NCBI GenBank assembly: GCA_041664625.1
Contig: JBAYKK010000005.1
Location: 1-56,792, forward strand
Length of the DNA stretch: 56,792 nt
Source: Minisyncoccota bacterium
GTDB taxonomy: Bacteria; Patescibacteriota; Minisyncoccia; Phycocordibacterales; WO2-35-19
Direction: 5' to 3'
The notes beneath the pieces were generated by a model that did not search any database, was not told where the DNA came from, and saw only the letters and a list, made by a program, of their open reading frames with translations. The position numbers were made by a program, and so were the translations under genes. Below are positions 30,417-54,885 of the stretch, in pieces (the first letter of the stretch is position 1; every line of letters begins with the position of its first letter).

Positions 30417-31259
30417 TTATCTTACCAGTTTTCCGCCATTTTTCAATTTTGAAAGAGCGTTTTCAAACTCTAAAGGTAAAGGTGATTCTACCGTCAACTG
30501 AGTGTGGTCAGGTAATTCTAGTTTTATAGAAAAAGCATGCAAAGCCAATCGTTCAAACCCTAAGTTTGCCTCTTCAGTTCCCCCCTTAATGTAAGGGGGG
30601 TTAGGGGGGTTATTTTTTCCGTAAAGTTTATCGCAAAGCACCGGATGTGAGATTGATTTCAGATGTACCCTGATCTGGTGGGTGCGACCGGTTTTGGGTT
30701 TAACTTCTAAATAGGCAAACTCTTCTACCTCTTTTCCTTCTTTACCCCTCTTAATATAAGAGGGGTCGACGCGTAGCGCGGGGGCGTTATTTGTTTGAGC
30801 AAGCACTTTATATTCTGTCACCGCTTCTCGCAATTCCCCTTTGGCACCATGTTCGGCCGACCATTTCCTGAAATCACTGGCACTTCTACCGATTGGTTTA
30901 TTTATAACCCCCTCCATTTTATCTTCCGAAAAATTACCCCAAACCACAGCATTATAAATTTTTTGGACTTCTCTATTTTGAAATTGTTCTTTCAAAAAAG
31001 CATGCGACTCTTTGGTTTTGGCCACCAAGATCACTCCACTAGTGTCTTTATCGAGGCGATGCACTATTCCTGGTCGTTTTATAATTTCATTATTTTGTAA
31101 AATCTGCTCTTCCCCTACTTCTTTCAAGTCAGGGTAATTTGAGTTTATCCAATCCACCAAAGTTTCTTCTGTTCTTCGGCCGTCACTATGCACCAAAAGA
31201 CCCGATGGTTTATCCAAGGCTAAGATGTATTGGTCTTCATATAAGGTATTTATTTCCAT
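30417..31259 (-). CDS. RluA/RluD family pseudouridine synthase
   Basis: GIVHRLDKDTSG, KTGRTHQIRVHL, LHA. Confidence 0.95.
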   Translation of the reverse strand: MEINTLYEDQYILALDKPSGLLVHSDGRRTEETLVDWINSNYPDLKEVGEEQILQNNEIIKRPGIVHRLDKDTSGVILVAKTKESHAFLKEQFQNREVQKIYNAVVWGNFSEDKMEGVINKPIGRSASDFRKWSAEHGAKGELREAVTEYKVLAQTNNAPALRVDPSYIKRGKEGKEVEEFAYLEVKPKTGRTHQIRVHLKSISHPVLCDKLYGKNNPPNPPYIKGGTEEANLGFERLALHAFSIKLELPDHTQLTVESPLPLEFENALSKLKNGGKLVR

Positions 31260-50482: not shown

Positions 50483-52879
50483 TTATTTCAACTCACCCCA
50501 ATTTTGGCCACTTGAGGTATTGACCACTAGCGGCACACCAGAGCTTTGCTCCAAAGTCATCACATTTTCCATAATTTTTTTGGCCTCCAAGCCAAAACTT
50601 GCCAATACTTCATCTTTAACTTCATAAATCAATTCATCGTGGATCTGCATCAGGAGATGTACTGAGTCTGCAAGATTATTGGTTTTTATAAAATCATCAA
50701 TTTTTTTCATAGCGATTTTGATAATATCGGCCGAAGTGCCTTGAATCGGTGCATTTATAGCCATGCGTTCGGCTGCTGCTTTTATAAAAGGTAAACGAGA
50801 TTTGAGACCTTCAAAATATCTACGTCGACCAAAAAAAGTTTTGGTATAACCATTTTTGGTAGCTTCTATTTTGGCATTATCCAAATATTTGGCTAAACCG
50901 GCAAAATTTTCAAAATAGGCATTGATGAATTTTTGAGCAATTTGGCGATCGGTGCCAATGTTGGCTTGCAAAGCAGTCACACCCATACCATAAAGTATCC
51001 CGAAGTTTATGATCTTGGCCTGTCTCCTCATTTCTTTGGTCACCTCCTCTTCAGAAACTTTAAAAACTTCCATCGCTACCGCAGTATGGATATCCTGACC
51101 ATTTTTAAATATTTCTATCATTTTTTTATCTTGGGCCAAAAATGCGGCGATACGTAATTCGATCTGCGAATAATCCAAAGCGAAAAGTTGACTACCGCGA
51201 GGTGCAAAAAAAGCTTTCCTGATCACTTTACCTCTTTCGCTACCGATGGGTATATTTTGTAAATTGGGACTTTCGGAAGACATCCGCCCGGTCGCTGCCC
51301 CAGTCTGCACGAACCTCGCATGCAGACGCGAGTTTTCATCGAGCGCTTTAGGGATCGGCTCTATGTAAGTAGAAATAATTTTTGAAAGTTCTCGATATTC
51401 CAAAATCAAAGGGATAATTGGGTGTAAATCTTTCATTTTTTGCAATTCTGATTCTTTGGTAGATTTGGCCCCACCAGCGGTCTTTTTTTGATTCTTAACC
51501 GAAAGACCCAACTTATCAAACAAAACTTCTCCCAACTGCTTAGGCGAGGCTACGTTGAACTCGACACCAGCTTCTTGCCAAATGTTTTTTTCTAAATCTT
51601 TAAGGATTTTGGAGTAATCATCACCCAAATTTTCCAAAAACTTTTTGTCTACCGAAATCCCATATTTTTGAGTTTCCATCAAAATAGGTATCAAGGGTTT
51701 TTCTATATCTTCAAAAATCGACTGGCTCTCTCTTTTTTTAAGTTCAGCAAAAACTATTTTTTTAGCTTCATCAAAATCTTCAGTCCCAGCAAAATTAAAT
51801 AAATCTTCTGGTTTAGGATTGGTTATGTTTGAATCCGCTACCCAAAGAGCGATCAGAGTTTCTTGCAAATCTTTGTCGTCTATTTTTTGTTTATTTTCAA
51901 TTTTTTCTTCTTTGATTGTTTCTTTACCTCCTTCTAATACACTTTTCAATCTCGCCCCCATATTTCTAAATTCCAATTTAGCAAAAAGGTTTTCAGCCAC
52001 TTTCAAATCCAAACCTTCTCGCCACTTTTGACTTGGCAAAACGAAATCAATTGGCGCATCCCGCCTGATAGTGGCCAACATTTTACTAAACTTGGCTTCT
52101 TCTTCGTTTTTCTCCAATAATTCCAAAATTCTTGGTTTTATTTTTTTTCGGATTTCGGATTTCGGATTTCGGATTTGCTTGTAAAGCTCTTCAATAGTGC
52201 CAAAATTTTTAATCAGATCAGTAGCACTTTTTTCGCCTATCCCAGCGACACCGATTATATTATCCGAAGGATCGCCTCTCAAACCTTTGAAATCAACTAG
52301 GAATTTGGGTTCAAAATCAAACCTTTCCAACACCGCTTTTTCATCATACAAAATAGTTTCTTTGATACCCTTTTTTAAAGTATAAACTTTGACACTGCCA
52401 TTATTTTTACCGCCATCAGAAACCAATTGCATGGTATCCATATCGCCAGAAGCGATCACAATATCAATAGGAATTTTCAATTTTAAATTTTCAATTTTAA
52501 ATTTCTCCACAATAGTACCCAACATATCGTCAGCTTCAAAACCTTCAAGAGAATAAATAGGGATATTCAAAACTTCACAAATTTGTTTGGATTTTTCCAA
52601 TTGCAAAGAGAGTTCATCGTCAGTTTTTTTGCGACCAGCTTTGTAGCCTTCATAAACTTCATGTCGATAAGTAGGTTTGGGCAAGTCATAGCAGGCCACG
52701 ATATAATCCGGTTTCAAATCAGTCGCTATTTTCAAAATCATCGTAACTAAACCATACAAAGCTCCTGTCGGCTCGCCTCCACTGGTCGCAAAATCCGGCA
52801 AAGCATGATACGCCCGATGAATGATCGCGTGCGCATCAAGCAATACTAATTTTTCTCTATTATTAATTTCCTTTTTCAT
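50483..52879 (-). CDS. polA: DNA polymerase I (5'-3' exonuclease plus polymerase; 3'-5' exonuclease region reduced)
   Basis: LLDAHAIIHRAYHA, FEADD, GDPSDN, GRMSSESPNLQNIP, DYSQIELR, RRQAKIINFGILYG, QIHDEL. Confidence 0.97.
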   Translation of the reverse strand: MKKEINNREKLVLLDAHAIIHRAYHALPDFATSGGEPTGALYGLVTMILKIATDLKPDYIVACYDLPKPTYRHEVYEGYKAGRKKTDDELSLQLEKSKQICEVLNIPIYSLEGFEADDMLGTIVEKFKIENLKLKIPIDIVIASGDMDTMQLVSDGGKNNGSVKVYTLKKGIKETILYDEKAVLERFDFEPKFLVDFKGLRGDPSDNIIGVAGIGEKSATDLIKNFGTIEELYKQIRNPKSEIRKKIKPRILELLEKNEEEAKFSKMLATIRRDAPIDFVLPSQKWREGLDLKVAENLFAKLEFRNMGARLKSVLEGGKETIKEEKIENKQKIDDKDLQETLIALWVADSNITNPKPEDLFNFAGTEDFDEAKKIVFAELKKRESQSIFEDIEKPLIPILMETQKYGISVDKKFLENLGDDYSKILKDLEKNIWQEAGVEFNVASPKQLGEVLFDKLGLSVKNQKKTAGGAKSTKESELQKMKDLHPIIPLILEYRELSKIISTYIEPIPKALDENSRLHARFVQTGAATGRMSSESPNLQNIPIGSERGKVIRKAFFAPRGSQLFALDYSQIELRIAAFLAQDKKMIEIFKNGQDIHTAVAMEVFKVSEEEVTKEMRRQAKIINFGILYGMGVTALQANIGTDRQIAQKFINAYFENFAGLAKYLDNAKIEATKNGYTKTFFGRRRYFEGLKSRLPFIKAAAERMAINAPIQGTSADIIKIAMKKIDDFIKTNNLADSVHLLMQIHDELIYEVKDEVLASFGLEAKKIMENVMTLEQSSGVPLVVNTSSGQNWGELK

Positions 52880-52920: not shown

Positions 52921-52948
52921 TTGACATTTACTTCTATTTTGCTATACT
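52921..52948 (+). promoter_or_regulatory. Strong sigma70 promoter with no downstream ORF
   Basis: TTGACA-N16-TATACT with TG extension. Confidence 0.75.
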
Positions 52949-52954
52949 TTATCT

Positions 52955-53013
52955 GTAAATGCTTTCCTTGTCGAAAGCCCTGAGAAATCCCCTGCAAGGG
53001 GGATTTCGTTTTA
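52955..53013 (+). ncRNA. Candidate ~60-nt two-hairpin small RNA convergent on the toxin gene
   Basis: GCTTTC-CTTGTC-GAAAGC hairpin, then GAAATCCCC-TGCAAG-GGGGATTTC-GTTTTA terminator. Confidence 0.55.
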
Positions 53014-53595
53014 TACAATACTCCCTATTTTTAACTTTATTTCTTTAAGTTCACTATTATCAATTTTACCCATAAATCTTAAAAGCCTTTTCGCGTCAAA
53101 AAGCCTAGCTTGGGACAAAATTAAAACTGAACCGCAAAATGAAACTAGCCTATGGTAATATTTACCATCCTTATTTTTATTTGATGTTAGTGGAACTCCT
53201 AAAAATATATTATTGTTGAATTTTCTTACTATCAAAACAGGCCGTTCAAAATCAGAATGTTTTCCATCCTCTTCATCTCCTATATTTTTGCCTATTGAAC
53301 CAATCCAAACTTCTCTCTTTTGAAAATAAACCCGACCTCTCTTTGAAAGTGCTTTTTTCTTTGTATTCCAATTATCAAAATCTTGATCTACTACTTTTTT
53401 CAAACTAAATCTTATTCCATACTCAATCCCTATTTCTGATTTGGATATGTATTCTTCTGCTTTTTCTATAGCAATCCGAAGTGAATTAAAAATGCCTATA
53501 CTTTGTATTTCTTCATTGGATTCATAATTATTCTCAGATACTTGAAAAATATCCTCCGTTTTCTCTTTTATAAGAATAAAATTATTTGCACTCAT
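53011..53595 (-). CDS. PemK/MazF-family toxin with N-terminal extension
   Basis: REVWIGSIGKNIGDEEDGK...FERPVLIVRKF....LGVPLTS...ILSQARLFDAKRL. Confidence 0.85.
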   Translation of the reverse strand: MSANNFILIKEKTEDIFQVSENNYESNEEIQSIGIFNSLRIAIEKAEEYISKSEIGIEYGIRFSLKKVVDQDFDNWNTKKKALSKRGRVYFQKREVWIGSIGKNIGDEEDGKHSDFERPVLIVRKFNNNIFLGVPLTSNKNKDGKYYHRLVSFCGSVLILSQARLFDAKRLLRFMGKIDNSELKEIKLKIGSIV

Positions 53596-54086
53596 TTTTT
53601 AACATCGTTTATTACAATTTTTCTTTCTGATTCTTTATGTCCATGTTCAAATTTTATCACAATATGAGGTGGCATAATACTTTGGATTTTTTCTGGCCAT
53701 TCTATAAAAATCAGATTTTGAGGATCCGCTATAATTTCTGACCAGCCCAAATTCAACATCTCTCCGGCTGTTTCTATACGATATGCGTCTATATGAATGA
53801 GTTTATGAAATATCTCCTCCTTCTTTCTCCCCTCTCCTTCGCAAGGAGAGGGGTTGGGGGTGAGGTCGTAAATTTTTTCAATAACAAAAGTGGGGCTTTG
53901 AATTATTTCTTCAATACCAAAAGCTTTGGCTAAATATTTCATAAAAGTAGTCTTACCACTCCCCAATTCACCATACAAACCCACCACCGTGGCGCTTTTT
54001 GCCAAATCAGACTTTTCCAAAATAGTCTTAGTAAAGTTGGAGGCGATTTGAGCTGTTTCTTCTGTGCTTTTAGATATAAATTCCAT
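53592..54086 (-). CDS. tsaE: t6A biosynthesis ATPase TsaE with palindromic in-frame insert
   Basis: GELGSGKTTF, QSPTF, HIDAYR, FIEWPE; insert LTPNPSPCEGEGR. Confidence 0.96.
   Translation of the reverse strand: MEFISKSTEETAQIASNFTKTILEKSDLAKSATVVGLYGELGSGKTTFMKYLAKAFGIEEIIQSPTFVIEKIYDLTPNPSPCEGEGRKKEEIFHKLIHIDAYRIETAGEMLNLGWSEIIADPQNLIFIEWPEKIQSIMPPHIVIKFEHGHKESERKIVINDVKK
53829..53869. repeat. CCCCTCTCC-type palindrome inside tsaE
   Basis: 39/41 identical to 971-1011. Confidence 0.9.
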
Positions 54087-54158
54087 CCTGTAGTAGATTT
54101 TGACTATGTTAATTTTTAACCGATTCCGTAAGAATTATAGTCAAAATTCACTACAGGA
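54086..54158 (+). repeat. GTAG-type REP-like palindrome, copy 6 (variant stem)
   Basis: GTAGTAGATTTTGACTAT...ATAGTCAAAATTCACTAC. Confidence 0.85.
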
Positions 54159-54254
54159 TTCCATATATTTATCCTACCATAATATAAAAACAAAAAGCCC
54201 CCGCCGGAGTCTGCCTAAGCAGATCATCCGACGGGGACAAGATCGATACCGATA

Positions 54255-54722
54255 TCAGCTTACTCCTCTTGGCCCACGGAGATAGTTGATTTCCCACGCC
54301 TCTGTGTGCCATCGCCCGTCAGTGCGTATCGTAAACCGACGGGATGCTGTTCCTGCGTACTGCCCAGGTTGACATCCCGCACTCTTTCGGTCTGCTTCGC
54401 TGGGGGTCGGTGGGCAGATCCCTCGCGCTGTGATGACGATGTCCCGCCGGCCGAGAAAGTTATAGTAGCCCCGCGAAACCGTCACCCCCGAAGGAATGAT
54501 AGCGTTTACGAATTGGCCAGTGGTGGTTTTGAAAGCCACCACTTGTCCGTTTTCGTATACCTCGATCGGCACGGTAGTGTTATTGGTCAACACTACGGTC
54601 AAAATTGGAGGGGTGGCAATCGATGAAAGCCGACCCCAACCTGCCCCACCTCGAGCCGCGACACATCCAGTTAAAAACATGACCGAAAGTGCCAGAAATA
54701 AGATCGAAGTCTTGTTTTTCAT
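54255..54722 (-). CDS. GC-richer lipoprotein
   Basis: MKNKTSILFLALSVMFLTGC lipobox; SD AGGAG; promoter TTGACA-N17-TATAAT at 54745-54773. Confidence 0.85.
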   Translation of the reverse strand: MKNKTSILFLALSVMFLTGCVAARGGAGWGRLSSIATPPILTVVLTNNTTVPIEVYENGQVVAFKTTTGQFVNAIIPSGVTVSRGYYNFLGRRDIVITARGICPPTPSEADRKSAGCQPGQYAGTASRRFTIRTDGRWHTEAWEINYLRGPRGVS

Positions 54723-54789
54723 AAAACTCACACTCCTGTCCTGCATTATAGCAAAGTCAAAGCTAAATGTCAAGCGTTTTTGAATCACA

Positions 54790-54885
54790 AAAATAGTTCT
54801 GGAGCGTGCCTATGCGTAGGCAAACGTGCCGAGCATAGCAAATTTCAGCAGAAATTATGCGACGGCTAAGCGAGAGAACTATTTT
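54790..54885. repeat. 96-bp structured repeat, copy 2
   Basis: 94/96 identity to 15243-15338. Confidence 0.92.

Follow-up and report, generated by a model that had tools for sequence, protein, structure and literature searches.

A small RNA convergent with a MazF/PemK-family toxin gene in a Minisyncoccota genome: a candidate RNA-controlled toxin–antitoxin pair

MazF is the textbook toxin of toxin–antitoxin (TA) systems of type II, and the question of what governs such a protein when no antitoxin gene stands beside it is raised by a locus in the genome of a Minisyncoccota bacterium of the Patescibacteriota (assembly GCA_041664625.1). The stretch analysed, called the window below, covers 56,792 nucleotides (nt) of the contig JBAYKK010000005.1, and the locus consists of an open reading frame (ORF) for a MazF/PemK-family protein of 194 amino acids (aa) on the minus strand (53011..53595), faced at its 3' end by the gene of a predicted small RNA (sRNA) of about 60 nt on the plus strand (52955..53014). 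In an earlier note on this DNA the pair had been described as a MazF-family RNase without a protein antitoxin neighbour, accompanied by a single, non-repeated, convergent sRNA, and this description is supported by the co-occurrence of the two genes among relatives; the designation of the toxin as an orphan is not, the gene belonging in fact to a large family, for which a published precedent probably exists in the pair cjrA/cjpT of a Campylobacter jejuni plasmid. The sRNA is quite likely the cognate antitoxin or a regulator of the toxin.

The sRNA, its structure and its company

The promoter of the sRNA (52921..52948, plus strand) is composed of TTGACA at 52921-52926, a spacer of 16 nt and TATACT at 52943-52948, with 11 of 12 matches in a consensus scan and an extended -10 element (TG at 52940-41), in agreement with the near-consensus promoter aimed at the toxin that had been read there before. 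The predicted RNA begins with the tail GUAAAU, followed by hairpin 1 (52961..52978, plus strand; a 6-bp stem with the loop CUUGUC), the linker CCCUGAGAA, hairpin 2 (52984..53007, plus strand), found by the terminator scan to be an intrinsic terminator, and the U-tail GUUUUAU (53008..53014, plus strand), which covers the toxin stop codon at 53011-53013, so that the succession of one hairpin and a strong terminator, with a U-run over the toxin stop, is present as first described. Its fold has a minimum free energy of -22.6 kcal/mol (z = -4.0), and none of 200 shuffled sequences was equally stable. Hairpin 2 probably terminates transcription in both directions, since the toxin strand has an A-run ahead of it and a U-rich run behind. 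No Rfam family was matched by the sRNA (the best hit was a chance match to rnk_pseudo, E 0.5), the tRNA scan gave nothing at this site, and no RNA sequencing runs containing the window sequence were found. Promoter-like matches of at least 9/12 are frequent by chance in the AT-rich DNA of the window (21 found against 18 expected), and the decisive evidence is therefore that of conservation.

Close relatives of the toxin were gathered as 20 proteins from a scan of species-representative genomes, and the convergent promoter and hairpins were found directly after the toxin stop in all 20. The position of the promoter is conserved in these relatives while its spacer sequence varies, and the overlap of the stop codon with the U-tail is kept in at least 17 of the 20. 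In the alignment of 21 RNAs (A1), pairing is seen in 95.9% of the cells of the two-hairpin structure; compensatory cells number 35, where shuffles give 9.0±2.3, and the pairing collapses as soon as the partners are slid by one column; in hairpin 1, compensatory changes occurred on both sides in four of the six pairs. The G.U wobbles of four relatives (L001, L005, L015, L016) exist solely on the sRNA strand, being A.C mismatches on the toxin strand, and among 50 further distinct RNAs the loops of hairpin 1 include 15 UUCG and 7 GNRA tetraloops (the usual form in the wider family is GGC-UUCG-GCC), those of hairpin 2 being GAAA in 11, GCAA in 9 and UUCG in 3. From the wobbles, the tetraloops and the positionally conserved promoter it follows that the functional strand is the one opposite the toxin, and the RNA structure and its strand are supported by covariation. 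A peptide gene in place of the sRNA was considered and rejected, since the AUG is missing in many relatives, hairpin 1 carries insertions or deletions of 1, 8 and 9 nt, and the compensatory changes fall on both sides of the stem; the earlier statement that the sRNA contains no ORF holds for the same reasons in so far as no ORF is conserved, the AUG not being kept and the length of hairpin 1 varying.

The plan of the family comprises a consensus promoter, a single-stranded tail of 5-8 nt, hairpin 1, a short linker, hairpin 2 and a terminator. The tail reads (U)ACAAAU, or GUAAAU in the clade of the window, and the linker CGA/UCG or CCGAGA; the sequences of both are conserved, while the stems and the promoter spacers drift. 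Hairpin 2 doubles as the terminator in the window clade, where the stop codon lies inside the U-tail and the RNA measures about 60 nt, while in the majority of distant members an A-rich spacer is added, and after it a third hairpin with a U-run, bringing the RNA to 85-95 nt. This third hairpin falls within the final ~10 codons of the toxin gene, the stop codon being inside it or adjacent, and looks like a bidirectional terminator common to both transcripts; in these members the tail and the first two hairpins probably lie outside the toxin transcript, and yet they are the conserved part. The narrow covariance model R1 scored 75.8 bits at the window sRNA. For a broad model, the MAFFT alignment of diverse RNAs was structurally inconsistent; in the RNA of Nitratiruptor the succession of tail, hairpin 1, linker and hairpin 2 is recognisable by eye.

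The 737-kb genome to which the window belongs contains three MazF-like paralogs, every one faced by a convergent, diverged sRNA of its own. The paralog of 135 aa at C14:6985-7432 (L023) has a convergent sRNA that R1 detects with 34 bits (E 1.8e-7), and that of 132 aa at C12:19944-20400 (L031) has its own diverged unit of promoter and hairpins. The latter follows rplI, and the former an uncharacterised ORF of 82 aa, which itself comes after an ORF that is DnaN-like by eye; the 82-aa ORF, tried as a relative of the N-terminal domain of the window protein, proved unrelated and has no Pfam family. Across 201 genomes of the class, 65 MazF-like matches were found in 32, with up to five diverged copies per genome, and of the 16 R1 matches of about 29 bits or more, 12 are convergent beside a MazF-like match, the weaker matches being ordinary terminators. 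The sRNA unit is likewise present at about 19 of the 20 homologs taken at 35-50% identity.

A profile scan of the species-representative genomes gave at least 585 loci of the family, 80 of which were put through a strict detector of a promoter with two hairpins, used because the narrow R1 misses distant members. The detector was positive at 50 of these 80 additional loci, whereas in three control regions it responded at 7/80, 1/77 and 1/77; most of its negatives were either misframed or showed the RNA on inspection by eye. The flanks of the pair vary (tsaE and polA; long upstream ORFs with a recurrent downstream gene of ~570 aa; paired ORFs of ~570 aa; and others), with the toxin gene as the 3'-most member of a housekeeping operon, preceded by tsaE, rplI or, in other loci, long upstream ORFs. 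No MazE/PemI-type antitoxin gene was found directly upstream, where tsaE, rplI or a long unrelated ORF (RpoC-like by eye in L010) is the neighbour; a small upstream ORF is absent from most loci, the small upstream gene or domain being confined to one sub-clade, in which no antitoxin family was matched. The toxin and the sRNA thus co-occur near-obligately, with several diverged pairs in one genome, and the search for the motif beside homologous toxins with a covariance model, which had been suggested as a check, gave co-occurrence almost without exception while the contexts changed.

Some irregular members of the family were also met. In one genome (G148, L053, C1:156376-156434) an sRNA with promoter and terminator, a strong R1 match, has no toxin gene and faces an ORF of 324 aa that is Obg-like by eye, a GTATAA remnant of the toxin 3' end being still there. 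Tandem duplicates of the sRNA follow a single toxin at L065 (G156:C43, 7222-7276 and 7375-7429) and at L033. The solitary sRNA and the duplicates both count in favour of the sRNA as antitoxin. At L002 (2617-3396) the protein P0009 of 259 aa carries a NUDIX domain (PF00293) N-terminal to the MazF-like core (PF02452), and the sRNA is present. Members bearing the sRNA occur in metagenome-assembled genomes labelled Sulfuricurvum, Rickettsiales, Bacteroidetes and Rhizobiaceae (L091, L113, L115, L090, L107, L151 and others); the Campylobacterota labels agree with the plasmid matches given below, and the remaining ones may be mis-binned or mis-named.

The toxin protein and the probable pVir precedent

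The product of the gene is a true MazF/PemK-fold protein with conserved residues at the catalytic positions. Residues 110-192 match PemK_toxin (PF02452) with E 4.7e-8 and 33.7 bits, above the Pfam gathering cut-off of 23.1, and the two paralogs of the same genome score 51.9 and 44 bits; no match was obtained in NCBIfam or PADLOC. By profile, the best relative of known structure is MazF/YdcE/EndoA of Bacillus subtilis (1ne8/4mdx, E 2.5e-6), followed by PemK/MoxT of B. anthracis (4hke), the MazFs of Staphylococcus aureus, Escherichia coli and Mycobacterium tuberculosis, and Kid. The AlphaFold2 (AF2) model, with a mean predicted local distance difference test score of 84.8, was matched by Foldseek to MazF structures of the MazF/Kid SH3-like barrel (MazF-mt1 and the MazFs of S. 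aureus, B. subtilis and E. coli) at target-normalised template modelling scores of 0.65-0.78 and E 1e-6 to 1e-4. R118-P119 is invariant and lines up with VRPVLV in the MazF of B. subtilis, and P135-L-T137-S138 is kept as T/S, so that Arg118 and Thr137/Ser138 occupy the catalytic positions (R29 of E. coli and R25 of B. subtilis; T52 and T48, respectively). Ahead of the barrel stands a family-specific N-terminal helix, DFDNWNxKKK, with W76 and K80 invariant. The protein is thus a fusion (53011..53595, minus strand), according to the ORF, PF02452, the structure profiles and the AF2/Foldseek comparison, of an N-terminal accessory domain (residues 1-68; 53392..53595, minus strand), which is a standalone gene in related loci, and the family core (residues 69-194; 53011..53391, minus strand), which corresponds to the form of about 126 aa shown by most homologs among the 120 matches listed. 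The clade of 126-aa proteins shares 65-80% identity, and the family amounts, in clusters at 50% identity, to 523 at E<=1e-30, a number that rises to 1978 at E<=1e-10. Toxicity would be expected of a protein of the MazF family.

Homologs were also found outside the Patescibacteria, where a tblastn search against plasmids returned 49 records (38 of Campylobacter, 8 of Helicobacter and 2 of Nitratiruptor). On the C. jejuni plasmid pVir the sole PemK/MazF gene is pVir0047 (134 aa), which over residues 2-115 shares 41% identity with the core of the window protein (E 4e-17) and resembles the window toxin in its N-terminal FDEWN..KK helix and its GKNIGxE...RPVLV motifs. On pVir and on the plasmids of Nitratiruptor and H. 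suis, a convergent promoter and hairpins follow the toxin stop. Between pVir0047 (405 nt) and pVir0048, an sRNA named CJpv3, of 77 nt on the minus strand (31119 to 31043), has been detected by Northern blotting and dRNA-seq, with a transcription start site (TSS) signal of 16164 against 28 for pVir0047, that is, about 500 times as strong (Dugar et al. 2013, PMC3656092, Tables S5, S12). The toxin stop lies at 31038, so that the end of CJpv3 is 5 nt outside the coding sequence, and the mapped TSS falls 6-8 nt after a -10 element equivalent to that of the window, in a promoter that is likewise TG-extended.

The pair cjrA/cjpT of C. jejuni pVir was reportedly described by Shen et al. in 2016 (Mol Microbiol 101:909, doi 10.1111/mmi.13431). 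It is probably the same pair as CJpv3/pVir0047, cjpT being probably pVir0047. Two later papers refer to CjrA of pVir as an antisense RNA serving as antitoxin in a type I system, and its neutralising effect is reported through such citing papers. Both the window and pVir have an independently promoted, convergent sRNA that ends at or near the toxin stop; however, cjrA/cjpT is a module of Campylobacterota plasmids without the N-terminal accessory domain, and the pVir RNA, with 77 nt and three hairpins, has no detectable similarity to the window RNA in sequence or by R1. A search of the papers available found no description of a MazF with a convergent sRNA in bacteria of the candidate phyla radiation. 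Systems of this kind probably have one experimental precedent and are otherwise undescribed as a MazF-sRNA family, of which the window represents a fused, three-part variant.

Mode of action and rival explanations

How the sRNA would neutralise the toxin is the next question. Tentatively preferred, although it could well be wrong, is the reading in which the sRNA acts by direct binding to the toxin protein, the overlap of the genes being that of a shared terminator. The sRNA would be made in large excess from its strong convergent promoter and would bind the protein directly, in a manner resembling type III systems with a single unit instead of repeats; a scaffold of two tetraloop-capped hairpins would display the 5' tail ((U)ACAAAU/GUAAAU) and the linker (CGA/CCGAGA), and the RNA might fill the RNA-binding groove of the toxin as an uncleavable substrate or a product mimic, the 3'-3' overlap serving mainly as a shared bidirectional terminator and a means of tight linkage. 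This reading is favoured because the single-stranded sequences are conserved although complementarity in cis needs no such conservation, because tetraloop-capped scaffolds are poor initiators of antisense pairing, because hairpins 1 and 2 are conserved outside the probable overlap while the protein has an extra Trp/Lys helix, and because a second pairing site on the toxin mRNA is absent. The nearest solved relative, B. subtilis MazF, cleaves UACAU; given this specificity, and with transcription predicted to start at the A of ACAAAU, the 5' tail may be viewed as a mimic of a MazF cleavage product. Mimicry of the K/N-W codons of the toxin (AAAUGG) by the tail was also considered and rejected, the tail variant being uncorrelated with the codon.

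A possible, if doubtful, alternative, only a little less probable than direct binding, is a type I-like antisense control, in which the sRNA would pair with the 3' end of the toxin mRNA and lead to its decay by RNase III or a 3'-exonuclease or to a block of translation, so that the toxin protein would be unmade while the sRNA is abundant. Other type I pairs that overlap at their 3' ends exist, namely txpA/RatA, bsrG/SR4 and par of pAD1, and CjrA is called an antisense sRNA of type I in citing papers. The 3'-3' convergence is invariant, with the end of the sRNA on or within the toxin stop region, and since the window clade shows no canonical toxin-strand terminator ahead of the sRNA gene, the toxin mRNA must carry at least the complement of hairpin 2, which would thus necessarily be present in its 3' untranslated region. 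However, UUCG and GNRA loops are poor initiators of kissing-loop contacts, the conservation of tail and linker is not required by a perfect complementarity in cis, the mapped end of the pVir sRNA lies outside the coding sequence, and the toxin is an enzyme of 126-194 aa and not a small membrane peptide. The 5' part of the sRNA scored -12.4 against the toxin translation-initiation region, compared with -11.9 for non-cognate and -11.1 for shuffled sequences, and a second pairing site of the par/Fst or SprA1AS kind was dismissed, no specific complementarity being found in that region.

Several points weigh against direct binding. The strictly conserved, convergent and stop-abutting geometry is a prediction of antisense control, and binding to the protein needs none of it; cjrA/cjpT, the one relative that has been studied, is classed by the papers citing it as type I (antisense). 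All evidence of sRNA expression comes from the pVir homolog. R1 misses the distant members, with no match at the loci of pVir, Nitratiruptor and H. suis, and it is therefore the shared architecture that has to carry the homology of the sRNAs across the family. Besides, at the window locus itself the fused N-terminal domain could be the real inhibitor.

The last point corresponds to another explanation, also put forward in the earlier note as a fused inhibitor, in which the N-terminal domain acts as a type II-like antitoxin or as a sensor lock similar to CapRel, the sRNA unit being a relic of a terminator and a promoter or a secondary regulator. The domain is very strongly conserved, with a confidently modelled fold of beta-beta-beta-alpha-beta topology (AF2), and its standalone homologs (P0121-P0129; 68-84 aa, 70-78% identity) include four loci (L019, L068, L071, L072) where its gene precedes a 137-aa PemK gene by 11-14 nt, the classic position of an antitoxin. 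It is also found alone in a TA gene cluster (L069, 1911-3689; L069/L070), between BrnT/CopG and HEPN/MNT genes and with no adjacent MazF gene. However, the great majority of homologs lack the domain, with only 2 of the 150 best-listed clusters aligned over the full length that includes it, and the loci having it keep an intact sRNA and a consensus promoter, all four of those just named retaining the convergent sRNA (R1 34.9 bits at L068, L071 and L072). Nor does it resemble a known antitoxin family or fold: no Pfam family was matched, and the known antitoxin folds were rejected as candidates after Foldseek returned at best E 0.08, with generic RNase H-like or ASKHA cores. Thus, of the idea of a fused inhibitor, the part that stood is that relatives carry the domain as a gene of its own, just upstream of the toxin, and the part that did not is its generality, most homologs doing without it and the sRNA being kept alongside; that the domain is the actual inhibitor and the sRNA a side element is very unlikely. 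Because most members are without it and the loci with it keep the sRNA, the domain is an accessory of a sub-clade and not a universal partner; it may act as a sensor or as an additional inhibitor.

It is equally improbable that the pair is no TA module at all, the protein being a tolerated housekeeping or processing RNase and the convergent element an insulator, a terminator or an independent riboregulator, for although the toxin genes end housekeeping operons (tsaE, rplI; RpoC-like by eye in L010) and the 126-aa clade is unusually conserved (65-80% identity), the distribution is patchy (32 of the 201 class genomes, up to five diverged copies in one), the varied contexts and plasmid-borne homologs are typical of mobile TA modules, a conserved consensus promoter and 5' tail would be superfluous for a terminator alone, and the pVir RNA is discrete and abundant.

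The pair of the window may be compared with the known classes. The fold of ToxN is Kid/MazF-like. In the type III systems ToxIN, CptIN and TenpIN, the antitoxin is a tandem-repeat RNA encoded upstream on the same strand, with a terminator between it and the toxin gene, and is processed by the toxin (Blower et al. 2012, PMC3401426). The likeness to type III thus consists in an endoribonuclease toxin with an RNA partner and no protein antitoxin, the occasional tandem duplication of the RNA gene included, whereas the window sRNA is a single unit with its own promoter, downstream and on the opposite strand, duplications being at most twofold; PF02452 was the sole Pfam match of the toxin, and membership in the ToxN/AbiQ, CptN or TenpN families was not found. 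With the type I systems of 3'-overlapping genes, such as txpA/RatA, bsrG/SR4 and Fst/RNAII of the E. faecalis par locus (reviewed in PMC6563280 and PMC8167048), the pair has in common the convergent transcription, the 3' overlap or shared bidirectional terminator and the strong promoter of the antitoxin. However, type I toxins are small (<60 aa) hydrophobic peptides, unlike the soluble RNase-fold protein of 126-194 aa described here, and the overlap is minimal, the hairpins are capped by tetraloops and no second complementary region is present. With type II MazEF/PemIK systems (Kis-Kid, EndoA-EndoAI) the toxin fold and motifs are shared, but a gene of the MazE, PemI or AbrB type is missing, an N-terminal helix is added and the constant partner is an RNA.

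A distinct TA class, centred on the Patescibacteria with extensions to Campylobacterota plasmids, might be envisaged, in which a canonical MazF has exchanged its protein antitoxin for a structured, single-unit sRNA. The RNA would attach to the toxin dimer itself, its tail, 5'-(ppp)ACAAAU or GUAAAU, would escape cutting by mimicry of the 3' cleavage product, and the Trp/Lys helix would keep it in position, the N-terminal domain being a second lock or a trigger sensor in one sub-clade; taken in all its parts this scheme is rather unlikely. A clade of MazF under the government of RNA, if real, would blur the division into types I, II and III and would account for hundreds of "orphan" MazF annotations in the tiny genomes of Patescibacteria. 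The family adds a new sRNA with covariation support that is not in Rfam, ties the isolated observation on a Campylobacter plasmid (cjrA/cjpT, CJpv3) to a widespread family and, as a compact pair of toxin and sRNA, is a possible basis for RNA-controlled RNase tools.

Neighbouring genes and further features of the window

Upstream of the toxin gene lies tsaE (53592..54086, minus strand; Pfam PF02367, E 3.8e-28), whose stop codon overlaps the ATG of the toxin as ATGA, an arrangement already noticed in the first reading of this DNA and found again here, and downstream lies polA (50483..52879, minus strand), across a gap of 131 bp that holds the sRNA gene; neither neighbour is a protein antitoxin, as had also been stated. 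The toxin gene probably shares its transcript with the housekeeping gene tsaE and is probably coupled to it in translation.

A few other features of the surrounding sequence may be mentioned. A near-perfect inverted repeat at 54086-54160, with arms of ~23 bp (-28.8 kcal/mol, z = -6.6), abuts the start codon of tsaE and could serve as terminator to the unit upstream or as a regulatory hairpin, or else be a small mobile element. Beyond it, at 54200-54790, there is an island of 55-61% GC in surroundings of about 30-40%, which looks foreign and contains an ORF (54255..54788, minus strand) for a lipoprotein-like product of 177 aa without a Pfam family, together with a TG-extended promoter matching the consensus in 12 of 12 positions (54773..54745). 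Within tsaE, a GC-rich palindromic insert is present at 53825-53870 (including CTCCCCTCTCCTTCGCAAGGAGAGGGG), the in-frame product of which is PNPSPCEGEGRKKEE, and in the coding sequence of polA the heptamer TTCGGAT is repeated four times in tandem at 52146-52175.

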